A stretch of DNA of 20,675 nucleotides from Alphaproteobacteria bacterium (GCA_965261975.1 CBDHEC010000014.1:1-20675); one strand, 5' to 3'. Positions 1 through 13,205 are shown, counted from the first letter of the stretch. The notes: generated by a model not told the origin, from the sequence alone. Program-made: numbers and translations.

Positions 1-2565
1 CCCCGCCTCGAACAGCCGCATGATGGGAATGCAAAGGCCTTCCTCGAACACCTGGCCGCTGTCGGGATTGAAGCCGATGCCGCCTATGTCGACGACGTGG
101 ACGGTCGAGGCGAACAGGCCGATGAGCGATTCCTCCGCAAAGGCCGGTGTCACGACGGTGAAATCGAACAGGTGGCCGGTTCCGTGCCATGGGTCGTTGG
201 TCACGAAAACATCGCCGGGCCGCATGGTCTCGACCGGATATCGGCTGAGAAACTGTCCGACCGAGGCGGCCATGGCATTGACGTGCCCGGGCGTCCCCGT
301 GACGGCTTGCGCCAGCATCCGGCCTGCGGGATCGAAAATACCGGCGGAAAGATCGCCCGCCTCACGCACAGTCGTCGAGAAGGCGCTGCGGATGATAGCC
401 TGCGCCTGCTCTTCGACGATGGAAATCAGCCGGTCCCACAGAACCTGCCTGCGGATCCGGTCGGTCAGGCCTGTCCGCGCGCGGATCGCGTCCGTCTCCG
501 GATTTCGTATCACCAGCAGATCGCCGGACGGATTCCTCGAAACGCTCCAGTTTTTTGGCACGATTGTGGTCGTCTGGGCCTCCTGGACAATGACGGGACC
601 TGCCGTCTCCTGCCCGAGCGACGCGCGCTCCACCACAGCTGCATTGCTGCCCGACTGATCTCCCGGTTCATGCAGCAGCCGGGATGAGCCGATCGCTGCC
701 GCTTCGGCCGCGTCTCGGCTCGCTGCCGGCAACCGATCGTGCTGCTCGCGATTGCCGGTCACGGTCGCCGACCAGGTGAGGACTTCGATCTCCATGTCGG
801 GAACCAGCAGGCCGAAACGTGCCTGATAAGCTGCCTCGAAGGCCGTGCGGACCTGGTCGGCCAGCGTCGGGTCGAGCGGACCGTCGGGGAGCGCGATCTT
901 GATCTCGTGTCCCTGCCCGACATAACGCGCGTAACCGTGGCGTTCGACGGAAAGGTCCCCGTCCGGGACACCCAGGCGGACGACCGCCTCCGCCTCCTGC
1001 TGCATCAAGGTGAACAATTCGTCGAGAGCCTTCCAGTCCAGCGTGTCCAGCCGGGTGTAGAGACTGCGGACAACTTCATAGGCGACCGGCGCCAGCAGGA
1101 AGCCGATGGCCGAACCGACGCCGGCATCGGCCGGTATGATGATCTTGTCGATGCCGATCTTGTCGGCCAGCCGGACCGCGTGCAGCGGCGCGCCGCCGCC
1201 GAAGGCGATCATCGTCCTGCCCTCCAGATCGCTGCCGCGCTCGGCCGCATGGACGCGCGCCGCGCCGGCCATGTTCTCGTCGACGATCTCGATCAGCCCT
1301 TTGGCGGCCGTGACCGGATCCATGTTCAGGCGCTCGCCAATGTCGGCATCCAGGGCCTCTTGCGATGCGCCGGTGTCCAGGTCGAAACCGCCGCCGGCAA
1401 AAGTATCCGGATCGAGCCGTCCGAGCATCAGATTCGCGTCGGTCACCGTTGCCCGGTCGCCGCCACGGCCATAACAGGCGGGGCCCGGCTCCGAACCCGC
1501 ACTTTCCGGTCCGACCTGGATTCGATCCAGTTCGTCGACATGTGCAATCGATCCGCCACCGGCGCCGATCTCGACCATCTCGATCACCGGAATTTTCACC
1601 GGCGTGCCGCTGCCTTTCATGAAGCGGTGCGCCCGGTCGATCTCGAACTCGCGGCTCAGCGAGGGTTCGGCGTCGTCGATCAGGCAGATCTTTGCGGTCG
1701 TGCCCCCCATGTCGAAGGAAAGGACCCGGTCCTCGCCGAGCGTCCGCGCCATGTGCGCCGCCAGGATCGCGCCGCCGGCGGGGCCGGATTCGACAAGCCG
1801 GACCGGAAAGCGCGCTGCGGTTTCGATGGTCACGAGGCTGCCCGCGGACGTCATCAGCAGGCAGGGGCATCGGAAACCGGTTTCGCCGAGGCGTTTTTCC
1901 AGATCGCCGAGATAGCCGGCCATTTTCGGCTGGACATAGGCATTGGCGACGGTTGTCGATTGCCGCTCGTATTCCCTGATTTCAGGGCAGACATCGGACG
2001 AAACGGAGATCGAGAGGCGCGGCAGCGCCTGCCCCAGGATCGCGGCGACCCGTTGCTCGTGATCCGGGTTGGCATAGGCGTGTAGCAGTCCGACCGCGAC
2101 ACTCTCGACCCCTTCCGCTTCCAGAACGGGGATGGTCCTGCGCACCGAATCCTCATCCAGCGGCGTCAGGACATCGCCGCGGAAGTTCATGCGCTCGGCG
2201 ACCGGCAGCCGCAGCGCGCGCGCCACCAGCGGCGGCAGGCGATCGGCCTGGATATCGTACTGGTCGAAGCGGTTCTCGAAGGCCATCTCGAGCGAGTCGC
2301 GGTGGCCTTCGGTCGTGATCAGTGCCGTCTTCGCACCCTTTCGTTCGATCAGCGCGTTGGTCGCCAGTGTCGTGCCGTGCAGCATCAGGTCGACCGAACC
2401 CGCCTCGATACCGGCCTCGGCCAGGGCGGCCTCGACTCCGCGCATGAAGCCGACCGCCGGCTGTGATTGCGTGGTCAGGACCTTGGCGGTCGTGCGGACG
2501 CCATCGCGGTCGAGAACGATGTCGGTAAAGGTCCCGCCAATGTCAATTGCAAGTCTCGTCACCAC
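1..2565 (-). CDS. ATP-dependent hydantoinase/5-oxoprolinase family protein, fused A (HyuA) + B (HyuB) subunits; 3' end outside the window
   Basis: Segments translated by hand in one minus frame from GTG 2565 (AGGGG SD at 2576-2580): VVTRLAIDIGGTFTD, FMKGSGTPVKIPVIEMVEIGAGGGS, GPVIVQEAQTTTIVP (A-subunit motifs). The frame continues without a stop into QVLWDRLISIVEEQAQAIIRSAFSTTVREAGDLSAG...TGTPGHVNAM...HVVDIGG...EEGLCIP (B-subunit motifs). It is absent from the ORF track, consistent with no in-frame stop inside the window. Confidence 0.92.
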   Translation of the reverse strand, partial: MVTRLAIDIGGTFTDIVLDRDGVRTTAKVLTTQSQPAVGFMRGVEAALAEAGIEAGSVDLMLHGTTLATNALIERKGAKTALITTEGHRDSLEMAFENRFDQYDIQADRLPPLVARALRLPVAERMNFRGDVLTPLDEDSVRRTIPVLEAEGVESVAVGLLHAYANPDHEQRVAAILGQALPRLSISVSSDVCPEIREYERQSTTVANAYVQPKMAGYLGDLEKRLGETGFRCPCLLMTSAGSLVTIETAARFPVRLVESGPAGGAILAAHMARTLGEDRVLSFDMGGTTAKICLIDDAEPSLSREFEIDRAHRFMKGSGTPVKIPVIEMVEIGAGGGSIAHVDELDRIQVGPESAGSEPGPACYGRGGDRATVTDANLMLGRLDPDTFAGGGFDLDTGASQEALDADIGERLNMDPVTAAKGLIEIVDENMAGAARVHAAERGSDLEGRTMIAFGGGAPLHAVRLADKIGIDKIIIPADAGVGSAIGFLLAPVAYEVVRSLYTRLDTLDWKALDELFTLMQQEAEAVVRLGVPDGDLSVERHGYARYVGQGHEIKIALPDGPLDPTLADQVRTAFEAAYQARFGLLVPDMEIEVLTWSATVTGNREQHDRLPAASRDAAEAAAIGSSRLLHEPGDQSGSNAAVVERASLGQETAGPVIVQEAQTTTIVPKNWSVSRNPSGDLLVIRNPETDAIRARTGLTDRIRRQVLWDRLISIVEEQAQAIIRSAFSTTVREAGDLSAGIFDPAGRMLAQAVTGTPGHVNAMAASVGQFLSRYPVETMRPGDVFVTNDPWHGTGHLFDFTVVTPAFAEESLIGLFASTVHVVDIGGIGFNPDSGQVFEEGLCIPIMRLFEAG

Positions 2566-2679
2566 TGCTGGCCAGCCCCTGTCATGTCGTTCGGGTTGTT
2601 GAACCTGCACCCGTTTGCCGTTCAGATCAAAGCCGAAGGCTCCCCTGAAGCCTGCCTTTCACATGCAATCCGCCGATAT

Positions 2680-4062
2680 TCAGCGAAGCTCGTCCCAGAC
2701 CGCGTCCAGAGCCCTTTTGAAGATGGCCATCGCCTCGTCGATCTCGTCCTCCTCGATGATCAGCGGCGGCATGAAACTGATGCGGTCCGGCGGGATCGAT
2801 CGCAGATAAAGTCCGCGTTCGTGCGCAGCATCCTGGACCCGGGCGCCCACCTTCAGATCAGGTTCGAACGGCACGCGCGCGGCCTTGTCGGCCATCAGCT
2901 GGAACCCGCAGAACAGGCCGATACCGCGGACATCGCCGACCAGCGGATGGTCGGCAAGCATATCGCAGTGCTCCAGGAAGCGTTTCGAGATCCGCCGGAC
3001 ATGGCCGATCAGGTCGATGTCCCGATAGATCTGCAGCGCTTCCAGCGCCACCGCCGCACCGACCGGATGGCCGGAATAGGTGAACCCGTGGCCGAACGTG
3101 CCGGTGTCGTCGCTGTTGCGCATCATGTCCCGGAAGAAATCTTCCCGGATCATCAGCGCCGACATCGGAAAGAACGCCGCCGTCAGCGCTTTGGCGCAGG
3201 ATGTGGAATCCGGCTGGAGGCCGAATGCCTGCGCGCCCCACATGTGCCCGGTGCGCCCGAAACCGCAGACGACCTCGTCGACATGGAAGTGGATATCGTA
3301 TTTGCGGATGACCGCCTGCATCGCCTCCCAGTAGCCCTTCGGCGGGCGGATCGCGCCGCCGCCGGATTGCATCGGTTCGGCAAAAAACGCCGCGATGGTG
3401 TCGGGGCCCTCGGTCAGGACAAGATCCTCGAACTCTTCGGCCATGCGCGCCGAGAACTCTTCCTCCGATTCGCCGTCGCGATGCGCCAGGTAGTAGTTCG
3501 GTGTCGAAAGCTTGGGGAACTCGTCGAGTGCAAGCCCGAAATTGGCATGCATGTGCGGTTGGCCCGACGCGCTCACCGCCGCGATGGTGCTGCCGTAATA
3601 ACCGCGCCAGCGTGAAACGATCTTTCGCCGCGCCGGCTGGCCGCGCGCGATGTTCCGGTACCACAGCAGCTTGATGATGGTGTCGTTGGCCTCCGAGCCG
3701 GAACACTGGAAAATCGCACGGTCCATCGGCGCCGCCGCCATCGCGGTCAGCCGCTTTGACAGTTCGGCGATCTTCGGATGCGAGCGTCCATAAAAACTCG
3801 GCGCGAAGGGCAGCGTCTCCATCTGCCGCCTGGCGGCCTCGGCCAGCCTGTCATTGTGATACCCGAGCGAGACGCAGCCCAGCCCGGAAAATCCGTCGAT
3901 CAGCTCGCGCCCGTCATCGGTCGTGAAACGGACGCCCTGCCCGCGGGTGACCATGACCGCAGGGCCCGTCTCGCTTTGCAGCCGCAGATCGGTCTGGCCG
4001 TGAATGTGATGATCGCGGTCACTGGCGTGGAGCGCACGATGTGCGGAGACACTCGCTTCCAT
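2680..4062 (-). CDS. Class-III PLP-dependent aminotransferase (omega-amino acid/amine:pyruvate transaminase type)
   Basis: Motifs IDGFSGLGCVSLGY, SGSEAND, AFFAEPMQ, DEVVCGFGRTG, CAKALT (PLP lysine), HGFTYSGHP, VRGIGL, PPLII. ATG 4062 with a GGGGGA SD is preferred over 4221, which overlaps the divergent LysR. Confidence 0.93.
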   Translation of the reverse strand: MEASVSAHRALHASDRDHHIHGQTDLRLQSETGPAVMVTRGQGVRFTTDDGRELIDGFSGLGCVSLGYHNDRLAEAARRQMETLPFAPSFYGRSHPKIAELSKRLTAMAAAPMDRAIFQCSGSEANDTIIKLLWYRNIARGQPARRKIVSRWRGYYGSTIAAVSASGQPHMHANFGLALDEFPKLSTPNYYLAHRDGESEEEFSARMAEEFEDLVLTEGPDTIAAFFAEPMQSGGGAIRPPKGYWEAMQAVIRKYDIHFHVDEVVCGFGRTGHMWGAQAFGLQPDSTSCAKALTAAFFPMSALMIREDFFRDMMRNSDDTGTFGHGFTYSGHPVGAAVALEALQIYRDIDLIGHVRRISKRFLEHCDMLADHPLVGDVRGIGLFCGFQLMADKAARVPFEPDLKVGARVQDAAHERGLYLRSIPPDRISFMPPLIIEEDEIDEAMAIFKRALDAVWDELR

Positions 4063-4152
4063 AACCGTTTCCCCCGAATTTCCGACCCCATTCGAGGCTT
4101 GACTCTTTCGAACCCCTTGATGAATCTCAATGTCGAAATCAGCTAATTTTGG

Positions 4153-4165
4153 TGAATTCTCTTCA
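4153..4165. promoter_or_regulatory. LysR-type operator TGAA-N5-TTCA (MetR-like T-N11-A site)
   Basis: TGAATTCTCTTCA lies in the divergent intergenic region, immediately before the LysR start. It matches the dyad described for MetR sites. Confidence 0.6.
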
Positions 4166-4169
4166 GTCA

Positions 4170-5099
4170 ATGAGCATGAATTTCCCGCTGCTGGATCTGC
4201 GGCACTACCAGATGATTGCAATGCTTGCGAAGACGCCCCGCGTGACCGATGCGGCGGATCGGCTCGGCATCACGCCATCGGCCCTGTCGCACCGGATCCG
4301 CGAGGCCGAGCGCAGGCTCGGCGTGCCGCTGTTCAGCCGGTCGCACAAGCGGCTGCGAATGACGGCGGCGGCCGAGCATCTGGCCCAGGTCGCCGAGCGG
4401 CTGATCGCCGATCTGGTGCGTGCCGAGCACGATGCCGAGCGCATGGGGCACGGCGTCAGGCATGTCGTCCGGCTGGCGGTCGAGGCCTACAGTTCCTATC
4501 ACTGGCTTCCGGGATTCCTGCAGCATCTCAGGCGCGCGCTGCCCGATGTCGGCATTCAGGTCGTCGCGGCGGCGGCCAGGTCGCCGCTGGGGAGCCTTGC
4601 GGACCATACGGTCGACCTGATCATCCTGTCCGGCGAAAACACGGCATCGCGGCTGGAGACCGTACATCTGTTCGACGACGAACTGCTTTTCATCATGCCG
4701 CCCGATCACCGGCTGGCCGGCAAACCCTGCATCGAGGCCGGCGACATCGTCGGCGAGGATTTCATCACCTATACCCGCATACCGGAACCGGACCGCGAAT
4801 ACGCCAAACTGTTCCGCCCCAACGATGCCTATCCCAACTGGACCGAAACCGTGGAACTGCCCGAAGCCATCGTCGAGATGGTCGCGGCCGGACTCGGCAC
4901 ATCGGTCCTGGCCGGCTGGGCTGTCGGCGGCGCGATCCGTTCCGGCAGGATCGTCGGCAGCCGGGTCGGACCGGATGGCGTCTCGGTTCCGTGGTTCGCG
5001 GTCATCCGCCCGGACACCGCGTCTGAAGATCAGATCACCCGGCAGGTCGCCGGCATTCTCGCCGAATGGTGCGCCGAGACCGATGGATTCAGAACCTGA
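4170..5099 (+). CDS. LysR family transcriptional regulator, MetR-like substrate-binding domain
   Basis: HTH: AADRLGITPSALSHRIREAERRLGVPLFSR. LAVEAYSSYHWLP and ELPEAIVEMVAAGLGTSVLAGWAV resemble the MetR subfamily. Start is ATG 4170 or 4176. Confidence 0.92.
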   Translation: MSMNFPLLDLRHYQMIAMLAKTPRVTDAADRLGITPSALSHRIREAERRLGVPLFSRSHKRLRMTAAAEHLAQVAERLIADLVRAEHDAERMGHGVRHVVRLAVEAYSSYHWLPGFLQHLRRALPDVGIQVVAAAARSPLGSLADHTVDLIILSGENTASRLETVHLFDDELLFIMPPDHRLAGKPCIEAGDIVGEDFITYTRIPEPDREYAKLFRPNDAYPNWTETVELPEAIVEMVAAGLGTSVLAGWAVGGAIRSGRIVGSRVGPDGVSVPWFAVIRPDTASEDQITRQVAGILAEWCAETDGFRT

Positions 5100-5113
5100 C
5101 GGAGAGGGCAGGC

Positions 5114-5983
5114 ATGAAGGTGTGTTTTGTTGGCCTCGGCACGATGGGATTGCCGATGGCCCTGCGGCTGAGCGAACAGGGATTCGATGTCGCCGGCTGG
5201 GATGCGTCTGCCGATGCCGGTCTTGGAGTTGCGAACCGCTGCGATACTTTGGCGGGCGCTGCCGACGGCGCCGATACGATCATCACGATGTTGCCTGAAA
5301 GCAGCCACGTCGCGGAGGTCCAGGGCACCATCCGCAGCTTGAATCATCCGGCCCGACGCATTTTCATCGACAGTTCCACCATCGACGTGACGGCGACGCG
5401 GGAGCTGGCCGCGCAGGCCAGACAGGACGGACACGGTTTTGTCGACGCACCGGTTTCGGGCGGTGCCGAGGGTGCCCGCGCGGGCTCGCTCAGCTTCATG
5501 CTCGGCGGCGATGCGGCCGACATCGAGACGATAATGCCGGTACTGCGGGCAATGGGCAGCAAGATCGCGCATTTCGGCGAAACCGGCGCCGGCCAGGCCG
5601 CCAAGGCCTGCCACAACATGATTTGCGGCATCACGGCGCTCGGCGTGTGCGAGGCGTTCGCGCTCGCAGACGCGCTTGGGTTGGATCAGCAGAAATTCTT
5701 CGATCTCTGCGCCGGCGCGGCGGCCCAAAGCTGGATCCTGGAAAACCGATGCCCGGTGCCGGGACCCGCGCTCGGCGCACCGGCCTCGAACGATTATGCG
5801 CCGGGATTCGCGGCGCGGCTGATGGCCAAGGACCTGCGTCTCGCCCAGGCCGCCGCCGATGCATCGGGCCAGCCGACCCCGTTCGGCGCTAAAGCCGCGC
5901 GGCGCTTCACCGAATTTGCCAAAGACTCCGATGCCGGCGATCTGGATTTTTCCGCCATCTACCGGACGATCCGCATTCCCTGA
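5114..5983 (+). CDS. mmsB: 3-hydroxyisobutyrate dehydrogenase-like (beta-hydroxyacid dehydrogenase)
   Basis: GLGTMGLPMA Rossmann motif, IDSSTID, DAPVSGG, GAGQAAKACHNM (catalytic Lys), and the MmsB-type CPVPGP...PASNDYAPGF...LMAKDL segment. GGAGAGG SD precedes ATG 5114. Confidence 0.85.
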   Translation: MKVCFVGLGTMGLPMALRLSEQGFDVAGWDASADAGLGVANRCDTLAGAADGADTIITMLPESSHVAEVQGTIRSLNHPARRIFIDSSTIDVTATRELAAQARQDGHGFVDAPVSGGAEGARAGSLSFMLGGDAADIETIMPVLRAMGSKIAHFGETGAGQAAKACHNMICGITALGVCEAFALADALGLDQQKFFDLCAGAAAQSWILENRCPVPGPALGAPASNDYAPGFAARLMAKDLRLAQAAADASGQPTPFGAKAARRFTEFAKDSDAGDLDFSAIYRTIRIP

Positions 5984-6010
5984 TACTGAAACGGTCGCTC
6001 GGTCCTCTCA

Positions 6011-6916
6011 TCATTCGTGCAGTTCGCCCTGGATTTCGGGTTTCAGGACCAGCAGCTCCTCCGTCAGCAGGTCGACAAAACGCCTGACCCGGACGGCGCG
6101 GCGCAGGTCCGAGTGCAGCAGGATGAAGAAGCTGCGGTCGAACTCCAGCCGGTTTCCCTCGATCGGTACCCACTCGAGACTGCCCCTGGCCAGCAACGGC
6201 ATGGTCCTGACAATGCCAAATCCGCGCCGCGCGAGGCTGAGCTGCATGACGTGGTCCATGGTGGCATGGCGGACTTCGGCCAGCGGCAGCGGGCTTTGTG
6301 TTGCCCAGGCCGGATGCCGGTTGATCTCGTCCCAGCCAAGCAGATGCAGCCCTTCTCCCCTCGGTCCTGCCTTTGGCATGTAGCGGTCCAGGTAATCGCG
6401 GCTTGCGTAGTATCCGAGTGCCAGCGGATAGAGCTTGCGCGCAACGACATCGTCGGTCACCTCGTGCGTGACTCTCAGCGAGACATCCGTCTCCAGGCGG
6501 TTGATGTCCTCCATCCGGTCGCTGACGTGGATATCGATATCGATGCCGGGATATCTGTCGAAGAATTTCAGCAGGATCGGCGCCACGACCTCGTAGGCCA
6601 TGGTGCCGGTCAGCGAAAACCGTAAGGATCCGGTCTCCTGACGGTCCAGCCCGGTCAATCTCTGCTGCGCGCCCAGGAACAGTTCCTCGGCCTGCTGGGC
6701 GACCGGCAGCAGCAGTTCCCCGGCTTCGGTCAGCTCGATGCCGCCGCGGGTGCGTCGCAGCAGCTGCATGCCATAGGACGTTTCCAGCGCCAGCAGGTGC
6801 CGGTTGATCTTGGCATGGGTCGTCCCCAGCGCCTCCGCCGCCGCCCGCAAGCTGCCGCTGCGGGCCACGGCAAGGAAATACGGCATCTGTTCCCAGTTCG
6901 TGACAACGACATTCAT
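6011..6916 (-). CDS. LysR family transcriptional regulator
   Basis: NWEQMPYFLAVARSGSLRAAAEALGTTHAKINRHLLALE...LTEAGE HTH; C-terminal HSDLRRAVRVRRFVD; divergent from the dehalogenase gene. Confidence 0.93.
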   Translation of the reverse strand: MNVVVTNWEQMPYFLAVARSGSLRAAAEALGTTHAKINRHLLALETSYGMQLLRRTRGGIELTEAGELLLPVAQQAEELFLGAQQRLTGLDRQETGSLRFSLTGTMAYEVVAPILLKFFDRYPGIDIDIHVSDRMEDINRLETDVSLRVTHEVTDDVVARKLYPLALGYYASRDYLDRYMPKAGPRGEGLHLLGWDEINRHPAWATQSPLPLAEVRHATMDHVMQLSLARRGFGIVRTMPLLARGSLEWVPIEGNRLEFDRSFFILLHSDLRRAVRVRRFVDLLTEELLVLKPEIQGELHE

Positions 6917-6935
6917 CGGACATCCTCATCGCTGA

Positions 6936-6955
6936 GTGGTTCGAATTCGACCCAC
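6936..6955. promoter_or_regulatory. Near-perfect 20-bp palindrome, candidate operator
   Basis: GTGGTTCGAATTCGACCCAC (one mismatched pair) in the LysR/dehalogenase divergent intergenic region. Confidence 0.45.
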
Positions 6956-7030
6956 CATGGCGCGAATGATCATCTATCTGGGTCGAAAATGGAAGCCTAT
7001 TGAACAGGGACCAGCCAACAGGAGGTCCCG

Positions 7031-7984
7031 ATGAAACGCAGATCCTTTCTCAAACTGGGCGGCGCGGCCATGGCATTCGCCAGCCTGAACCCCACAATCC
7101 TCAGGGCGAACAGCCAGGCGGCGCTGCCTAAGAAGAGAATGACCGTCCTCGGCCAGCGGATCGCCTATTCCGATCAGGGCCAGGGGCGTCCTGTCGTGTT
7201 TCTTCACGGCAATCCGGCGTCCTCCTATCTCTGGCGCAACATCATCCCGCATGTCAGCGGAAACCACCGTGCGATTGCGCCGGATCTGATCGGCATGGGC
7301 GACAGCGACAAGCCGCCGATGAAAGAGACCTATCAGGATTCGCGTGCCTATCTTTTTGCCTTCCTCGATGCGCTGGACCTCGAGGATGCCGTCCTCGTCA
7401 TCCATGACTGGGGTTCGTGCCTTGGCTGGGAATATGCCCGCAGCCGGCCGGAACGGATCTCCGCGATCTGTTTCATGGAGGCGATGTCCCCGCCCTTCAT
7501 GCCGATCACCAGCTACGCGGCACTGGGCCCGTTCGAGGAGTTCATCCGCAACATCAACACGCCCGGCGTCGGCGAAGAGATGATCCTGAACCAGAACATC
7601 TTCCTCGATCAGTTCATGCGCCACGGCAGCCCGCAGGGCCCGCTGCCGGATACGGTCATGGCCGAGTACAACCGTTACTATCCGACGCCGGAAAGCCGGC
7701 AGATCCTGTTGGACTGGCCGCGCGAGATTCCGATTGCCGGCAATCCCGCCGACGTTCACGCCGTGGTTCAGGCCAACAGCGACTGGCTGCTGACGACAGG
7801 TTTCCCGAAGCTGATGTTCCACGTTGACCCCGGCGCGATCATCAACATGGAGACCGCCGCCTATCTCACCCGGAACCTGCAGAATCTCGAGACCGTCTTC
7901 CTCGGTGCCGGCAGCCATTTCCTGCAGGAGGAATACCCCGAGCAGATCGGCCGGGGCCTGGCCGAATGGCTGACCCGCATCTGA
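7031..7984 (+). CDS. Haloalkane dehalogenase (HLD-II, DhaA/LinB-like) with N-terminal twin-arginine signal peptide
   Basis: FLHGNPASSYLWRNIIP, APDLIGMGDSDKP, IHDWG (nucleophile Asp + halide Trp), FMEA (acid Glu), WPREIPIAG, SHFLQE (base His). N-terminus MKRRSFLKLGGAAMAFA...SQAA fits a Tat signal. GGAGG SD present. Confidence 0.92.
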   Translation: MKRRSFLKLGGAAMAFASLNPTILRANSQAALPKKRMTVLGQRIAYSDQGQGRPVVFLHGNPASSYLWRNIIPHVSGNHRAIAPDLIGMGDSDKPPMKETYQDSRAYLFAFLDALDLEDAVLVIHDWGSCLGWEYARSRPERISAICFMEAMSPPFMPITSYAALGPFEEFIRNINTPGVGEEMILNQNIFLDQFMRHGSPQGPLPDTVMAEYNRYYPTPESRQILLDWPREIPIAGNPADVHAVVQANSDWLLTTGFPKLMFHVDPGAIINMETAAYLTRNLQNLETVFLGAGSHFLQEEYPEQIGRGLAEWLTRI

Positions 7985-8027
7985 CGCGCAGCCATTTCAA
8001 CCGTCCGAAAACAGAAAGGATCCAACG

Positions 8028-8432
8028 ATGTTACGTGCCGCACAAGTCGCCGCCGGGCTGATTGCCCTGGTCTTTGCCGGCTTCTCGATTCTCTACATTT
8101 TCAGTCCGCTGGGCGCGAGCGCCGCGAACAGCCTCGATCCGATCGGCGAGAGCGGCATGACGAACATGCGCGCGCTGGCCGCGCCGCTTCTGGCGATGGG
8201 ATTGATGGCGGCGATCGGGGCCGTCAAGAAGAACGCGATCTTCCTTGCACCCGCCGCGCTCTATTTCCTCTTCTCCATCGTCATCCGCGTTTCCGGCCTG
8301 ATTGTCGACGGTGCCGGCGGGAGCACGGTTCGCGGCATCGTCGTCCCCATCGTTCTGTTCGCGATCGCCGAGTTCGCGATGTTCGTGTTCCGGCGCGCCT
8401 CCAACGGCGAAGCGGCTTTGCAGCCCGCCTGA
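8028..8432 (+). CDS. Small four-TM membrane protein, DUF4345-like
   Basis: Four hydrophobic segments; NMRA and RVSGLIVDG motifs recall DUF4345; AAGGA SD; 43 bp after the dehalogenase. Confidence 0.7.
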   Translation: MLRAAQVAAGLIALVFAGFSILYIFSPLGASAANSLDPIGESGMTNMRALAAPLLAMGLMAAIGAVKKNAIFLAPAALYFLFSIVIRVSGLIVDGAGGSTVRGIVVPIVLFAIAEFAMFVFRRASNGEAALQPA

Positions 8433-8488
8433 GAAAACGTGGCGCGTTTTCGCGCCATTCACTCCAACCGCAGACCCCGGAGCGCGTC

Positions 8489-9136
8489 GTGAAATCCACC
8501 AGAGAAAGCCGATCCTGCCTGTTGCGGTCGTCTCTTTTCCTGGCTGGCCTGATGGTCCTCGTCGCCGTCGGCAGCCAGATCGCGATGTGGATCGGTCTGA
8601 ACGACGACCTGCTTCCGATGCAACTGGCTCTGCCGCTTATCCTGCTGATCTTCGTTCTCGCCGCCGCGGTCCCGTTCGTGCCCGGCGCCGAGATCGGTCT
8701 GGCCCTGTTGCTCTTGTTCGGCGCCGATGTGGCATTCGAGGTATACCTGTCGATGGTCGCCGCGCTTTCCCTGGCCTATTGCCTGGGCCGGTTCGTTCCA
8801 CCGGCGCTGTTAATCCGGCAAAGGACCTATTTCCGTTGGAATTTCCGGCGCTCCGGCGATCGGCGGCCTGCTTCCGGATCCATTGGTTGGCTCGCGTTTG
8901 GCGGATTGCGGATGATCGGCAGGCATCGGCTTGCCGCCCTCGGGATCGCGTTGAACATGCCCGGCAACGCGCTGCTCGGCGGTGGCGGCGGCCTTGCCAT
9001 GATGGCCGGAGCCAGCAGGCTCTATTCGCCGGCCGAGTTCGTATTGACGGTCGCAATCGCCGTCTCGCCGGTCCCGCTCGGTTTCGCGGCAATGGGCTGG
9101 TTCGGTCTCAGCCTGCCGGAATTCTGGCCCGGCTGA
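8489..9136 (+). CDS. Membrane protein, remotely DedA/VTT-like
   Basis: Several TM segments; AVPFVPGAEIG and ALNMPGNALLGGGGG helix-breaking motifs; GGAG SD before the GTG start. Confidence 0.7.
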   Translation: MKSTRESRSCLLRSSLFLAGLMVLVAVGSQIAMWIGLNDDLLPMQLALPLILLIFVLAAAVPFVPGAEIGLALLLLFGADVAFEVYLSMVAALSLAYCLGRFVPPALLIRQRTYFRWNFRRSGDRRPASGSIGWLAFGGLRMIGRHRLAALGIALNMPGNALLGGGGGLAMMAGASRLYSPAEFVLTVAIAVSPVPLGFAAMGWFGLSLPEFWPG

Positions 9137-9529
9137 CCGCTTTCGCCGCAGCGCGCAGGGCACGAGTTCCTTTGACCACACGTGTCCCGGACCGCCCGGT
9201 GACGCCAAGGCCTGCAATCTGGATCTACCGGACGATCCCGTCGGGTCGGACCAGAACCAGCCCTGGCCACCCTCGAAGCCTTCAGAACGGGCAATCCTTT
9301 CGCTGCATCGCCCGAGTGAGGACGATGAACGAACTCCAGGCATGAAGAACTCGACGAGGTACCAGCTTGCAACGCAATAGGCCGGATTGCTCGTCCGATC
9401 GAGGTGGATCAATCGTCCTATAGATTCGATGGGGAGAAGCCAGAAGGAGTTTCTACCAGCAGCGGCAAGATCAATATTTTTGTCGAGCAAATTCTTGGCA
9501 AGGCCTTTAATTTGTTTAATGGTCGTCAT
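8810..9529 (-). CDS. Putative immunity protein; authentic part probably only 9529 to ~9241, remainder likely read-through after a junction
   Basis: ATG 9529 overlaps the TGA of the upstream gene (ATGA). The first ~96 aa (MTTIKQ...GWFWSDPT) are globular, aromatic-rich and relatively AT-rich. After that the frame runs antisense into the 8489-9136 gene with an R/P/G/A-rich shadow-ORF composition. Confidence 0.6.
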   Translation of the reverse strand: MTTIKQIKGLAKNLLDKNIDLAAAGRNSFWLLPIESIGRLIHLDRTSNPAYCVASWYLVEFFMPGVRSSSSLGRCSERIARSEGFEGGQGWFWSDPTGSSGRSRLQALASPGGPGHVWSKELVPCALRRKRSAGPEFRQAETEPAHCRETERDRRDGDCDRQYELGRRIEPAGSGHHGKAAATAEQRVAGHVQRDPEGGKPMPADHPQSAKREPTNGSGSRPPIAGAPEIPTEIGPLPD

Positions 9530-10617
9530 TTTATCGGCCTCACTTGAATGATAATTATACCATTTGATTGCGGCCAAAATTTCTTGGCGGATCTGGCTAG
9601 AAACAACGCTCTTTTTGAGCTTAGCCCCGCCGATCCAGTTTTATAATCATAGACGCAGACTGTTTGATTTGGTGAGAGTTCGAAAAGATCGAGGCGTGCT
9701 GAACCCTTTTCTCCATAAACTGCTTCATCGCCGGTACTGCTTATCGAAAATTCGACGCGCACATCGGGATAAGCCCTTGCAATGAATGTGTGTGCGATAT
9801 CGACATGGATCATGGTGCCGAGTTGCTGTCTCGCCAGAAGGGGATTCAAGGCTGTCAGCCGTTTCGTCGCCTCGTCCGTTACGGCTTGCACTTCGGCGTT
9901 GCGTGGACAAGCTCGGTCGAGTGTCGTCTGATCGACCGGACCAACCCAAATGAGGGTAAGTTTTTTGTCCGGATCTGGGTCGAAGTCGTAGCGCAGTGCC
10001 GTTCTGCCCGGTGCCTTGCCGAATCCCGGCCTCCGAGCTTCCAGATAGGTGAAGAGAAGCGCCGCCGCTTCAAGAGTGACCTTGACGGCCGGAGCGACGA
10101 CGAAAGCCGGCAGAAAGACCTGTTGTATTGTGGGCTGGGATTGCGATTCGGATAACGCGAACGCGCCACGCGAGAGAACCTCTCCCGATGCCCCGTCGCG
10201 GATGGTCTGAACGTCGCCCGAATTCTCGAAAATCCTGCTTTCGCCATCCGGTGTGACGACGGCGTGCTGGTCGTCCCACTCTCCGCGTCCCGAGCGAATA
10301 CGCAGCGATAGAATCCGAGCCCCGTTATTGGTGACGGTTTCCTCTCGCGTGGACCTGCCTGACGTGCTTCCGTTATCGATGGAGGATCGGAGTGTCTGAC
10401 CGGTTGATGGACGATCGGTCAGGCGACTGCCTCCGACGCCTCCGTCGGAGACCCACCGCCCACCATCGCTTTGGCCGGCGGGCGCACGGGGCTGGGCTGG
10501 ATCGTACTTCCGGTCCAGGCTCTGTTGGAGTCGGATCAGTTTTGTCTCCGTCGCCAGTATGGCGAGTTGGCGACGGAGGGTTTCGGCTTCATGCCCGCGT
10601 TTGGAAGTGCCCCACAT
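9526..10617 (-). CDS. Putative polymorphic toxin: N-terminal QPRxPAG/GGRW motif, C-terminal PD-(D/E)xK nuclease-like domain
   Basis: 363 aa from ATG 10617 (GGTGA SD). KYDPAQPRAPAGQSDGGRW at 10453-10509; GTMIH (9805-9819) ... RLDLFE (Asp 9688-9690) ... VYDYKTG (DYK 9640-9648). The CDS is well supported; the toxin role is inferred. Confidence 0.72.
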   Translation of the reverse strand: MWGTSKRGHEAETLRRQLAILATETKLIRLQQSLDRKYDPAQPRAPAGQSDGGRWVSDGGVGGSRLTDRPSTGQTLRSSIDNGSTSGRSTREETVTNNGARILSLRIRSGRGEWDDQHAVVTPDGESRIFENSGDVQTIRDGASGEVLSRGAFALSESQSQPTIQQVFLPAFVVAPAVKVTLEAAALLFTYLEARRPGFGKAPGRTALRYDFDPDPDKKLTLIWVGPVDQTTLDRACPRNAEVQAVTDEATKRLTALNPLLARQQLGTMIHVDIAHTFIARAYPDVRVEFSISSTGDEAVYGEKGSARLDLFELSPNQTVCVYDYKTGSAGLSSKRALFLARSAKKFWPQSNGIIIIQVRPIK

Positions 10618-10630
10618 CGCGATCACCAAT

Positions 10631-10645
10631 GTTCGTGTTTTGTTC
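10631..10645 (-). promoter_or_regulatory. Alphaproteobacterial LexA (SOS) box GAAC-N7-GAAC
   Basis: Plus strand GTTC-GTGTTTT-GTTC = minus strand GAAC-AAAACAC-GAAC. Exact consensus with A-rich spacer, 13 nt upstream of ATG 10617. Confidence 0.85.
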
Positions 10646-10656
10646 TAATCCTGGCC

Positions 10657-10685
10657 ATCCTAAAATAGGAACATTTTCAATTGAA
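10657..10685 (-). promoter_or_regulatory. Candidate sigma70 promoter for the toxin gene
   Basis: Minus strand TTCAAT-N17-TAGGAT. This would place the LexA box just downstream of the transcription start. Confidence 0.4.
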
Positions 10686-10722
10686 ATGCATCTCCTCCTA
10701 CTTCGTTAGGGGGATTGGCCAT

Positions 10723-10755
10723 AAAAAAACGCCGCCCCATGAACGGGACGGCGTC
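10723..10755 (-). terminator. Rho-independent terminator of asd
   Basis: Minus strand ACGCCGTCCC-GTTCAT-GGGGCGGCGT followed by a T run; insulates the downstream toxin gene. Confidence 0.85.
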
Positions 10756-10807
10756 AATGACAATGGCCGGTCGATGGGTTTCGACCCAAGGACTGGAAGT
10801 GGAGTGA

Positions 10808-11839
10808 TCAGGCCGCTGCCCGCTCCTTCAGGAGCTTCCGGTTGATCAGCATCTCGGCGATCTGCACCGTGTTCAGGGCCGCGCCCTTGCGCAGGTTGTC
10901 GGCGACGCACCAGAACGAGAGGCCGTTATCGACCGTCGAATCCGCGCGGATGCGCGAGACATAGGTCGCATCCTCACCGGCCGCCTCGTGCGGGGTCATG
11001 TAGCCGCCGGGCTCACGCTTATCGACGACCAGGATGCCCGGTGCCGAACGCAGGAGGGCAGTCGCCTCCTCGGGCGAGATCGGATGCTCGAATTCGACGT
11101 TCACCGCCTCGGCATGGCCGATGAACACCGGCACTCGCACGCAGGTCGCCGTCAGCTTGATCTTGGGATCGAGCATCTTCTTGGTCTCGGCGACCATCTT
11201 CCACTCTTCCTTGGTGGATCCGTCGTCGAGGAACACGTCGATTTGCGGGATGACGTTGAAGGCGATGCGCTTGGGGAACTTCTCCATGGTCATCTGGCCA
11301 GCGGTGAAGACCGAACGGGTCTGTTGGAACAGCTCGTCCATGGCTTCCTTGCCGGCGCCGGAGACCGACTGATAGGTCGCCACCACCACGCGGGTGATCT
11401 TGGCCACGTCGTGCAGGGGCTTCAAGGCGACGACGAGCTGCGCCGTGGAGCAGTTCGGGTTGGCGATGATGTTCATCTTCGAGAAGCCGGTGATGGCTTC
11501 CGGATTCACTTCCGGCACGATCAGCGGCACGTCGGGATGGTAGCGAAAGGCCGACGAATTATCGATGACGACGCAGCCGGTCTGGCCGATGCGCGGCGAC
11601 CATTCCTTCGACGTCTCGCCGCCGGCGGACATCAGGCAAATATCGGTGTCGGAGAAATCGTAGGTGTCGAGCGCCTTCACCTTCAGGATCTTGTCACCGA
11701 AGGAGACTTCCTGCCCGGCGCTGCGGCGCGAGGCGATAGCCACGACCTCATCGGCGGGGAACGCCCGCTCCGACAGGATGTCGAGCATCTCACGGCCAAC
11801 ATTGCCCGTGGCACCGACGACGGCGACCTTGTAACCCAT
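10808..11839 (-). CDS. asd: Aspartate-semialdehyde dehydrogenase
   Basis: VAVVGATGNVG, IDNSSAFR, IIANPNCST (catalytic Cys), TYQSVSGAG, TCVRVPVFIGH, DNLRKGAALN. Confidence 0.98.
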   Translation of the reverse strand: MGYKVAVVGATGNVGREMLDILSERAFPADEVVAIASRRSAGQEVSFGDKILKVKALDTYDFSDTDICLMSAGGETSKEWSPRIGQTGCVVIDNSSAFRYHPDVPLIVPEVNPEAITGFSKMNIIANPNCSTAQLVVALKPLHDVAKITRVVVATYQSVSGAGKEAMDELFQQTRSVFTAGQMTMEKFPKRIAFNVIPQIDVFLDDGSTKEEWKMVAETKKMLDPKIKLTATCVRVPVFIGHAEAVNVEFEHPISPEEATALLRSAPGILVVDKREPGGYMTPHEAAGEDATYVSRIRADSTVDNGLSFWCVADNLRKGAALNTVQIAEMLINRKLLKERAAA

Positions 11840-12311
11840 CTCTCCAACTCCGCTTCGTGATGCCCTGGTTCCCCGCCAGGGCCGGGCTCATCGCCTCGGC
11901 ACCGCCGGCAGGGTCGTTGGCAAGTCTCCGTGTACCGGTCCCATGAGAATCCGCAGGGTTTCCCGGTCACGACCTGATTGACCGGCCGGCTGCGAAAACG
12001 CGTCGTCCCGCGGGCTTGCCGGCACGCCCCGTCCCGTTCGACCCTTCGATAGGACCACTTTGACTTCAAGCGGCGGAGCAAGACGCCTCGTCTCCGCGAC
12101 TGTCAAGAGTTGCGCTGCACGCGAGACTTTCGTCGCGGCACAAACAGGACCTGCCGATAGACGCAAGGTGTATCGGGCAACGATTGATTCACCGCAAAAT
12201 CGAAAACCCTCGTCCGGTCACCCGGTGTGAAACCCGGCCTACGGAGCCTCGAGAGCATGGTCGCTCGCACGCGGCGAAAGCCTCCAGAAGAGTCACCGGT
12301 TTCAGGGTTTC

Positions 12312-13205
12312 ATGCATCGCATCGCCGTACAGGACGAAACCATCCATCGGCTCCCCAAGCGCAAGGCTCGCTCGTCATTGCGGCTTGCCGTGCCTTGCGT
12401 CGCGGCACTCGCTTGTGTCGGCGCAGCCGGGCAGTTCGTCGGTGGTGAGCCGAAACACGGCGAGACGAAGTCGGGGGCGATTGCCTCGACCGACACGAAT
12501 GCCCAGCCGTTCGTCCCCACCGCCGCCATGAATGTTCGCCAGGCTCTGCCCATTGCCGAAACGGCCCCGCGTTATCGGCTCGACGATCCTGACGCCCTCG
12601 ATCAGGCGAAGATCGAGCCAGCACGGATCAACCCGGCCACGGGCCAGAGGGAGGACCGTCTCTCACAGGGTAAATTCGACGCGGCGGATGCACCCTATCT
12701 CAGCCTCACCGTCACAGAGGGCTCCACACCTCCCGTGAGCCTGTTCGTCACCATCGCCCGACGGGCCGCGGACGGGCAGGGACTCGCCGTCGTACGATCC
12801 GGCGAACGAGGGTTGATCGCTACCAAGTTCGGTCCGCTCGAGACCTTGGAAGCCACGTTGAGCGGTCCGGGGACGCGGATCTGTACCGGTTTCTCCAATG
12901 CGGGGCAGAGCGGGCTGATTCCACTGACCCCGCGCATCGATGGCTGGCTCTGTGCTCCGTTGAGCCAGCCGCCGGAGCCGCGGGCCATCGTCTGCGCCCT
13001 GGACAAGCTCGTTCTGAATGGCCAAGCTTCCGCAGGCCTCGAAGCGGCGTATCGCGTGTTCGAGGAACGGCGGGTGGAGGGCTGCACGCCGCGTGTCGCG
13101 GCCGTCCCCAACCGAGAGGCCGCCGGAGAAACCGGATCGATCTCGAAACGCCGCATCCGACATAATGAGGCGAAACTGCGGCGAGGCGACCAAGCGCGGC
13201 CTTAG
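12312..13205 (+). CDS. Hypothetical protein with N-terminal hydrophobic anchor/signal and Cys-containing exported domain
   Basis: 297-aa ORF with host-like codon usage; basic stretch then LAVPCVAALACVGAAG; ATKFGPLE, ICTGF, GWLC, IVCALDKL; four Cys in the C-terminal half. Confidence 0.75.
   Translation: MHRIAVQDETIHRLPKRKARSSLRLAVPCVAALACVGAAGQFVGGEPKHGETKSGAIASTDTNAQPFVPTAAMNVRQALPIAETAPRYRLDDPDALDQAKIEPARINPATGQREDRLSQGKFDAADAPYLSLTVTEGSTPPVSLFVTIARRAADGQGLAVVRSGERGLIATKFGPLETLEATLSGPGTRICTGFSNAGQSGLIPLTPRIDGWLCAPLSQPPEPRAIVCALDKLVLNGQASAGLEAAYRVFEERRVEGCTPRVAAVPNREAAGETGSISKRRIRHNEAKLRRGDQARP

Follow-up and report, generated by a model that had tools for sequence, protein, structure and literature searches.

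The trafficking domains recognized in polymorphic toxins include Rhs, filamentous haemagglutinin, PAAR, LXG, MuF and PrsW. Nuclease colicins and S-type pyocins are multi-part proteins without a signal peptide that end in a nuclease domain and are expressed from SOS-box promoters, with an immunity gene directly downstream. In polymorphic toxin systems, as described in the sections of Zhang et al. (2012, PMC3482391) drawn on here, one conserved N-terminal module goes with various C-terminal toxin domains, the gene directly after the toxin is protective, orphan copies of immunity genes and fragments of toxin genes stand in tandem, and toxin and immunity genes diverge fast. Here we analyze a two-gene unit beside asd in a stretch of DNA of 20,675 nucleotides (nt) from an Alphaproteobacteria bacterium (GCA_965261975.1, CBDHEC010000014.1:1-20675), the whole of which is referred to as the window. 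The unit, gene A followed by its partner gene B, resembles both classes in layout, and we put at roughly 55% the probability that it is a LexA-repressed conflict module of the toxin/immunity type, composed of a predicted nuclease (A) and a predicted protective partner (B). The original prediction, made from the sequence of the window alone, had proposed an SOS-inducible nuclease toxin with its immunity gene; that interpretation is supported in part. The computational checks suggested with it mostly favor it, and the decay of gene A and the orphan partner arrays described below fit it; corrections are made below on toxin tip exchange, the hydrophobic segment, the spread of the LexA box and mobility.

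Gene A encodes 363 amino acids (aa) and has many relatives. A word-indexed search returned 89 of them, and an exhaustive profile search, in which representative clusters are counted, gave 3269 clusters at E ≤ 1e-3, 847 at E ≤ 1e-10 and 296 at E ≤ 1e-30. All names among the word-indexed matches listed are Methylobacterium or Methylorubrum "hypothetical protein", and genome loci with gene A relatives come from Methylobacterium, Methylorubrum, Bosea and uncultured Rhizobiales or Alphaproteobacteria. The loci compared below form a set of 79 sources, made up of 78 loci (L numbers) and the window. The window protein is 99% identical to P0003, 93% to the protein of M. bullatum LMG 24788 (L003) and 92% to that of sp. 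W2 (L002), and paralogous pairs within one genome are common (L002 and L054 in sp. W2; L001 and L053 in M. marchantiae). Directly 3′ of gene A, 69 of the 79 sources carry a conserved gene for a protein of ~227–235 aa, mostly with the same ATGA overlap of stop and start codons that couples the two genes in the window (GATAAAATGACGACC), so that both the coupling and the cognate downstream gene of the original prediction are borne out.

We counted decay at the 69 loci that contain a full-type copy of gene A and placed it on a maximum-likelihood (ML) tree. L072, a single open reading frame (ORF), was counted as intact, as was L068, whose partner spans positions 7–228 of the partner hidden Markov model (HMM); L069 is cut by a contig end. 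Disruptions of gene A affect 21 of the 69 loci: nonsense codons account for 11 (7 TAG, 2 TAA and 2 TGA) and frameshifts or other lesions for 10. These disruptions require at least 17 changes on the ML tree, against a mean of 18.1 when the labels are shuffled; that is, they are equally scattered, and disrupted copies have close intact sisters, as in the pairs L023/L021 and L035/L060. Where gene A is disrupted the partner is intact at 14 loci, fragmentary at 6 and absent at 1, and where gene A is intact the partner is intact at 44 loci and missing or cut at 3 (the window, L061 and L067), with L069 at its contig end. The M. bullatum isolate mbul2 likewise has an internal deletion of ~118 bp in gene A and an intact partner. 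Full partner genes stand in tandem, two or three together, at seven loci (three paralogues in a row in L011, 5993–8520), and three more loci have partial second copies. In L013 (6801–7856) a degenerate gene A start (MPRKYSPDQPRAPAGQSDGGR...) lies ahead of a second full partner, and in L014 an extra partner is preceded by the tail of gene A (HMM positions 326–368). A toxin that is often lost, with protection that is retained and stockpiled, looks like the pattern of toxin/immunity pairs aimed at other cells.

The sequences of the two genes diverge rapidly. At the asd-adjacent site, Asd is 84–100% identical between species and gene A 38–93%, and only 38–57% outside the nearest relatives of the window. 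GC at third codon positions (GC3) is 0.869 in asd and declines from 0.69 to 0.39 along gene A; the GC fall reported previously, from 46/60 at 10441–10500 to 24/60 at both 9481–9540 and 9541–9600, is exact in every count. Mean pairwise identity over 41 intact pairs is 0.52 for the N-terminal module (N-module), 0.55 for the beta domain, 0.37 for the helix and hairpin that follow it, 0.41 for the nuclease domain and 0.35 for the partner. Partner distances track the C-terminal half of gene A best (Spearman 0.59–0.62 versus 0.44 for the N-module, uncorrected for shared ancestry). The site itself is a conserved housekeeping position, occupied in 29 of the 79 sources, and the module is not mobile here.

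The N-module of gene A also occurs on other toxin domains. In three Methylobacterium loci (L071, L073 and L074) an N-module 54–59% identical over ~45 residues to that of gene A goes with RNAse_A_bac (PF18431), a bacterial CdiA-CT RNase A domain, with E-values of 7.5e-15, 2.8e-5 (a partial match below cut-off) and 3.5e-14, respectively. Module and domain lie in two adjacent reading frames in L074, a small ORF follows the 218-aa protein of L071, and each of the three loci matches GAAC-N7-GAAC perfectly at −64 to −66. In L075, L076 and L078 the N-module is joined to other C-termini without a family assignment. Proteins that share the N-terminal ~60 aa and differ in their C-termini, some with an upstream GAAC-N7-GAAC box, had been anticipated by the original prediction and do exist; its exchangeable tip is confined to this wider N-module group, and within the gene A family one conserved C-terminal domain is kept over thousands of clusters. 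The N-module is a putative carrier module common to a wider group of alphaproteobacterial toxins. A role as a recombination handle was considered and rejected: toxin genes within one genome share only 18–42 nt at 74–83% identity, and a module conserved as protein with so little shared DNA is therefore not such a handle. In L076 (M. thuringiense) the N-module protein has a Cys-rich C-terminus and is followed by a DUF6968 gene (5337–5672, E 3.1e-33), which therefore suggests DUF6968 as a candidate immunity family.

The same module is found among phage-head proteins. A Phage_portal domain (PF04860) is matched by P0239 (E 2.8e-64) and P0238 (E 4e-11), both from metagenomes; after it come the motif of the N-module (...RYRPDQPRAPAGQSDGGRW...) and then RNAse_A_bac in P0239 or a different, unassigned C-terminus in P0238. 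In L077, a Pseudorhodoplanes metagenome-assembled genome, an N-module gene, whose C-terminus is likewise unassigned, and then a DUF2019 gene (E 3.9e-33) stand in a head module, preceded in turn by terminase, portal and prohead protease (Peptidase_S78) and followed by major capsid. The motif is not a general feature of portals, since a deposited phage portal that matches up to the motif region lacks it. A search for the N-module among longer proteins found none, which is weak evidence. Phage or gene transfer agent (GTA) head loading, as these arrangements suggest, is the best lead for the export of the toxins, and a module that is fused to a portal in some proteins and in one relative sits between the genes for prohead protease and capsid makes the capsid route directly testable.

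The perfect LexA box claimed 13 nt ahead of the gene A start (GAACAAAACACGAAC) is present and is the single GAAC-N7-GAAC match in the window. Shuffled windows contain a mean of 0.59 matches, with at least one in 49 of 100, and a lone box in the window is not significant; it carries weight because the same position is conserved in relatives. A perfect box lies upstream of the module in 28 of the 79 sources, with only 44 perfect boxes in 828 kb overall, and tolerating one mismatch raises the count to 42 of the 79, where 0.126 boxes per 180 nt are the background. Of the 69 rows of the family tree, 35 carry a box at that tolerance, a distribution that requires 5 changes, compared with a mean of 23.4 for shuffled labels and none as low in 500 shuffles. 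In the clade of the window all 15 members have it (≤1 mismatch), in the GAAC orientation at −28 or −43, and in a second clade it is found in 18 of 19 members in the opposite orientation at about −49 to −61. From this clade distribution, the predicted SOS control is a conserved trait of the lineage of the window and not of the whole family; as a family trait the box holds for about half of the Methylobacterium members. The alphaproteobacterial (Caulobacter) LexA consensus is GTTCN7GTTC in PMC12700426, and the box of L016 (GTTCTTGTTATGTTC) is identical letter for letter to the box of two Caulobacter SOS genes given there.

The operator lies 11 nt past the candidate −10 element of a promoter that was read by eye, an assignment that we infer from the sequence and that a consensus promoter scan did not call. 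This candidate promoter includes a TCCTAT element (10670–10665, minus strand) that recurs upstream of family members: ATAGGW/WCCTAT is present at −140 to −1 in 50 of the 79 sources, compared with 0.03 per 140 nt in the background. It occurs also in clades without the LexA box, in some of which copies stand as inverted or direct repeats on either side of a TTGACA- or TTGTAA-like hexamer, and it may serve as a promoter element or as the operator of a different regulator. Upstream transcription is kept out by the intrinsic terminator of asd, which insulates the two-gene module as had been stated before.

A working model of the module follows from these features. In an undamaged cell LexA would sit on the GAAC-N7-GAAC box at the transcript start and repress the unit, and DNA damage would remove LexA, leading to expression of both A and B. 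On the evidence of motifs, fold and decay patterns, A would attack the nucleic acid of cells without a matching B. The correlated divergence of the two proteins suggests that B would neutralize A, probably by binding its fast-evolving C-terminal half.

The same regulation could serve a module that acts inside the producing cell. In such a damage-triggered suicide or arrest module, akin to BapE or to toxin-antitoxin pairs, the nuclease would degrade the DNA of the cell itself or of an induced prophage, B would set the threshold and nothing would be exported. A LexA box right at the promoter, a chromosomal and vertically inherited site, and a window in which no secretion signal or delivery gene was found are what such a module would have, frequent loss of gene A fits a costly gene, and in Caulobacter the SOS-induced endonuclease BapE promotes damage-induced death according to the portions of PMC12700426 and PMC12907096 that we draw on. 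We nevertheless regard it as rather improbable. An inhibitor should decay once A is lost, yet the partner is intact in 14 of the 21 loci with a broken gene A, and the extra tandem partners at seven loci fit protection from a toxin that arrives from outside. The fusion of the N-module to a phage portal and its presence in a prophage head module also argue against a purely internal role, and the partner, which lies downstream and matches no DNA-binding family, is unlike typical type II antitoxins.

The interpretation as a toxin/immunity-type module depends in addition on the nature of the C-terminal domain. An AlphaFold (AF2) model of gene A (predicted local distance difference test (pLDDT) 82.4, predicted template-modeling score (pTM) 0.73) consists of a long helix (residues 6–37), the motif QPRxPAGQxxGGxW with a Gly/Ser linker modeled at low confidence, a beta domain of seven strands (75–152), a helix (174–194), a hairpin (206–229) and the C-terminal domain. 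In 87 diverse homologues Arg-44, Cys-237, Gly-267, His-271, Asp-310, Asp-324 and Lys-326 are invariant, and Glu-289, Ser-291, Arg-308, Glu-313, Cys-321, Tyr-323, Thr-327 and Gly-328 are conserved in at least 90%; within the N-module the same level is reached by Gln-42, Arg-44, Gly-48, Gly-52, Gly-53 and Trp-55. The window protein retains every conserved residue, and all motifs quoted for the modular 363-aa protein in the original prediction are present, with Gly-267...His-271, Asp-310 (codon 9690–9688) and the Asp-Tyr-Lys triplet 324–326 (9648–9640) verified and invariant. The hydrophobic segment described there is also present, without evidence of a membrane span: residues 181–190 (mean pLDDT 92) belong to the confidently modeled helix 174–194, which contains Lys and Glu and is therefore read as packed. 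The beta domain is the best-conserved part within Methylobacterium (mean pairwise identity 0.551 for the region 75–165), and short family members of 254–260 aa are without it. Three long members (P0103, P0113 and P0147, 441–466 aa) have an extra conserved N-terminal region (...FMPPGSP.Y.G.DV..YFWP...) before the helix and motif. A separate observation concerns the boundary before the nuclease domain, where one conserved Gln (equivalent to Q227) is replaced by a stop codon in three separate lineages: L035 at 5646 (TAG), L037 at 5619 (TAA) and L046 at 5658 (TAG), with L060 and L057 as the intact sisters of L035 and L037. The coincidence may reflect a position that was struck repeatedly, or more than that.

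Over residues 263–359 the model contains helix 263–281, strands 286–288, 311–314 and 319–325, helix 334–347 and strand 353–359, an order that can be read as the alpha-beta-beta-beta-alpha-beta core of PD-(D/E)xK enzymes carrying the conserved residues in PD-(D/E)xK order. The catalytic signature (Glu-289, Asp-310 and Asp-324-x-Lys-326) is invariant or at least 98% conserved in the 87 homologues. With Foldseek the best matches in the PDB are to the Cas4-family protein ACE1 (9iac and 9iab, probability 0.85–0.98; 9iac 0.98 with E 9e-3), and several PD-(D/E)XK nucleases of a viral library score probabilities of 0.75–0.96. At the profile level PDDEXK_1 matches 8 and Cas4 2 of the 87 members, all below cut-off (best E 0.0023), and there is a weak PDB profile match to 9iac (E 1). 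The window protein matched no curated PD-(D/E)xK family model in the Pfam scan, a single-sequence search of the PDB with gene A returned nothing, and the only nominally significant PDB match, to Tako8 (E 1e-10), was set aside as an artefact of the word VWDIKTG, which recurs in this designed protein. Tox-REase-5 and -9 clusters come up at 0.78 in a protein-language-model search, a lead and no more. The fold assignment is accepted because these weak fold and profile matches are concordant and the motifs agree with them; the last ~160 aa thus show a modeled PD-(D/E)xK-type fold, as the original prediction had supposed, and A is a predicted nuclease.

A nuclease of this fold under LexA control might instead be an SOS-regulated enzyme of DNA repair or recombination, with Cas4/RecB-like end processing and B as an accessory subunit, and no toxin at all. 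LexA regulons typically contain repair genes, Cas4-family nucleases are the closest folds, and a vertically inherited housekeeping site and purifying selection on the nuclease half suit a useful enzyme. That at least 17 independent events have broken 21 of 69 copies is unexpected for a useful repair gene, and neither the very fast divergence and low GC3 compared with the neighboring asd, nor the tandem partner arrays and toxin-fragment remnants, nor the frequent pairs of paralogous copies per genome, nor an N-module in common with RNAse_A_bac toxin domains would be expected of one, so that we consider this explanation very unlikely. We think just as little of a soluble colicin-like bacteriocin released by damage-induced lysis, whose beta domain would bind a receptor and whose motif and linker would recruit a Tol/Ton-type importer: the order of parts recalls colicins and S-pyocins (a flexible N-terminus with a Trp motif, a middle domain, a nuclease, a downstream immunity gene and an SOS box), and GGxW presumably resembles a TolB-box-like epitope, but there is no colicin or pyocin domain match, no lysis gene candidate was noticed on reading the window ORFs (no search was aimed at lysis genes), L071 (218 aa) and the short members are too small for a receptor-binding domain, and after a phage portal domain, where the motif also occurs, an import epitope would be hard to explain.

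Within the toxin/immunity interpretation, a more specific proposal for delivery can be made from the portal fusions and the head-module locus. The N-module may be a capsid-loading and processing signal for SOS-timed toxin cargo of phage or GTA heads that is encoded in trans on the chromosome, an idea that we offer tentatively and hold to be rather unlikely. One DNA-damage signal would then induce both the toxins and a resident prophage or GTA; the toxins would be packed in heads near the portal, released at the motif and delivered to neighboring cells by injection along with the DNA, and the survivors would be cells with a matching ~230-aa partner. Methylobacterium nodulans has RcGTA-like head-tail clusters, and LexA control of RcGTA is cited in PMC5721377.

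The partner is a protein of no assigned family. None of 39 members has a Pfam match, the 39 partners include no match to DUF4304 (PF14137) at E up to 1, and the partner profile finds no relative among PDB sequences. An Atlas cluster scoring 0.92 in the language-model search, with DUF4304 in 33% of its members, is a lead only. The partner model is confident (pLDDT 94.3, pTM 0.90) and divides into an alpha+beta half (residues 1–95) and a helical half (98–232); no PDB fold matches it (all E > 0.3, probability < 0.1). In the window the gene is truncated, as the original prediction implied, and only the alpha+beta half remains. The remnant covers residues 1–97 by tblastn, with 78% identity to the L001 partner, and the partner HMM matches at positions 1–97 only. 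When the window is compared by blastn with L001, L002, L003 and L079 (a second M. bullatum isolate), similarity ends at 9239 in all four, and in L002 the partner is followed by an opposite-strand hexapeptide transferase gene and then by rimP, nusA and ylxR. Because homology stops at 9239 and unrelated genes lie beyond, a rearrangement must have removed the helical half of the partner. The module of the window is therefore half-broken, with an intact toxin gene and a truncated immunity gene. The frame of the truncated partner stays open for 143 further codons across the breakpoint (8810–9238), on the opposite strand of the convergent gene, and a chimeric 240-aa product is therefore possible.

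Several observations weigh against our interpretation. With gene A intact and the partner cut, SOS induction should harm the strain if A is active against its own cell, and neither gene shows relaxed constraint (ratio of nonsynonymous to synonymous substitution rates, dN/dS, of 0.20 for gene A and 0.17 for the partner remnant between the window and L003; 0.15 and 0.19 in the L003–L002 control). Therefore the truncation is recent, or the remnant with its alpha+beta half suffices, or A is not self-toxic or acts only after delivery. The C-terminal half is under strong purifying selection among close relatives (dN/dS 0.08–0.11), a comparison that shows no positive selection, and the partner correlation is uncorrected for shared ancestry. 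The module is kept vertically at a housekeeping site (in L002 between asd and rimP-nusA), which is unusual for mobile toxin cassettes, and the LexA box is absent from the Methylorubrum asd-site clade (0/9) and from a paralogous clade (0/17). Gene A has no match in Pfam, NCBIfam or PADLOC and its family nothing meaningful in PHROGs; a signal peptide was not noted either, nor does any described secretion or toxin/immunity family give a match above cut-off. No Foldseek match in the PDB or the viral library reaches E ≤ 0.001 (best 2.8e-3), and a tblastn search of gene A against 50,697 deposited phage records gave no match.

Features of the locus in the window; coordinates are those of the window and (−) denotes the minus strand.
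Feature	Position	Strand	Description
asd	10808–11839	(−)	Pfam Semialdhyde_dh E 6.9e-35 and Semialdhyde_dhC E 1.9e-54
asd intrinsic terminator	10755..10728	(−)	12-bp stem with 8 G-C pairs, then T run
Candidate promoter	10657..10685	(−)	TTCAAT, 17-nt spacer, TAGGAT; read by eye
LexA-type operator GAAC-N7-GAAC	10645..10631	(−)	GAACAAAACACGAAC; pattern scan; ~100 nt past the terminator
Gene A, intact	10617–9526	(−)	363 aa, ATG at 10617; candidate SOS-controlled nuclease toxin
N-module, residues 1–57	10447..10617	(−)	Helix 6–37 and KYDPAQPRAPAGQSDGGRW motif
Beta domain, residues 75–152	10162..10395	(−)	Seven predicted strands (model)
C-terminal PD-(D/E)xK-type domain, residues 205–363	9529..10005	(−)	G267xxxH271, E289, D310, D324xK326
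Partner gene B remnant, codons 1–97 of ~232	9239..9529	(−)	Start overlaps the gene A stop
Rearrangement breakpoint	9238..9239	.	DNA 1–9238 unrelated to the partner-gene flank in relatives

To the left of the breakpoint lie three genes (7031–9136), none of which is syntenic with the loci of relatives: one for an alpha/beta hydrolase (7031–7984) whose N-terminus is a weak twin-arginine translocation (TAT) signal match below cut-off (E 0.013), one for a weakly DUF4345-like membrane protein (8028–8432) and one for a hydrophobic protein of 215 aa (8489–9136) that matches no family and converges with the partner remnant. An Rfam scan of 8000–12500 gave no match, and the neighbors of gene A are housekeeping genes, with no phage gene anywhere near. 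In M. bullatum LMG 24788 (L003) an insert of ~2.4 kb (2109–4528) separates asd from gene A and ends with a duplicated 3′ fragment of asd (residues 241–343, 90% identical).

Three modules of no described family, namely the N-module, the PD-(D/E)xK branch described here and the ~230-aa partner, stand unannotated across thousands of clusters, and together they bear the genomic marks typical of toxin/immunity conflict between bacteria. If the proposed function is true, Methylobacterium and its relatives, common bacteria of leaves and soil, would possess a weapon timed by DNA damage, the class of SOS-controlled polymorphic toxins would extend beyond the colicins of enterobacteria, and there would be a handle on how toxins without secretion signals exit the cell; if the capsid proposal is true, phage or GTA particles would gain a role in kin discrimination. 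The window is in this respect a natural half-knockout, with its toxin gene intact and its partner truncated, and convenient for genetics. No published description of the family or of the N-module motif was found: a search for the motif string was empty, and the remaining literature was judged by titles and the openings of abstracts.

Of the described nucleases, ACE1 and other Cas4-family enzymes provide the best structural matches to gene A, and differ in that E-values are ~1e-2, identities are 10–12% and no Argonaute or CRISPR genes stand in the context of gene A. To our knowledge BapE has no partner gene, N-module or orphan arrays. Compared by description only (PMC12700426, PMC12907096), BapE of Caulobacter crescentus is similar in being a LexA-controlled endonuclease of an alphaproteobacterium that is tied to damage-induced death. 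The motifs listed for Tox-REase-9 (PF15650) in the section of Zhang et al. consulted (PMC3482391) are GxxxH, E, D and ELKP, which parallel the GxxxH, E, D and DxK of gene A within a restriction-endonuclease fold. Architectures and taxa of the Tox-REase families differ from those of gene A, and PF15650 and PF15648 (Tox-REase-5) are absent among the matches listed for the 87 members at E up to 1 (25 of 32 families).

Phage-head toxins of the MuF type provide a parallel in delivery. The N-module motif joins Phage_portal to toxin domains in P0239 and P0238, and the N-module and DUF2019 genes of L077, between prohead protease and capsid, fit the capsid-carried toxins proposed in the sections of Jamet et al. 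(2017, PMC5576092) and Zhang et al. (2012, PMC3482391) that we draw on. Unlike those toxins, the proteins described here have no MuF domain, the window gene lies outside a phage head module, and the head-module feature is confined to L077 and the portal fusions. More generally, none of the trafficking domains Rhs, filamentous haemagglutinin, PAAR, LXG, MuF and PrsW was found for the module, and the N-terminal 165 aa of gene A match no secretion or trafficking domain in Pfam, NCBIfam or PADLOC.

From nuclease colicins and S-type pyocins the module differs in its PD-(D/E)xK-type domain, where those carry HNH or rRNase/tRNase domains, in a partner of ~230 aa as opposed to ~85–90 aa, and in being chromosomal and vertically inherited. 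Colicin, pyocin and immunity families of Pfam have no match at E up to 1 in the family or its partners, and no lysis gene candidate was noticed among the window ORFs, for which no dedicated search was made; past the breakpoint stands the convergent membrane-protein gene of no family. In contrast to polymorphic toxin systems, the N-module, partner and nuclease family match no Pfam model, and the module has its own LexA-type operator and a fixed housekeeping site across the genus. With an N-terminus that is shared by alternative tips, with downstream partners and with orphan arrays, the module by analogy most resembles a polymorphic toxin/immunity system with the predicted SOS timing of a colicin.

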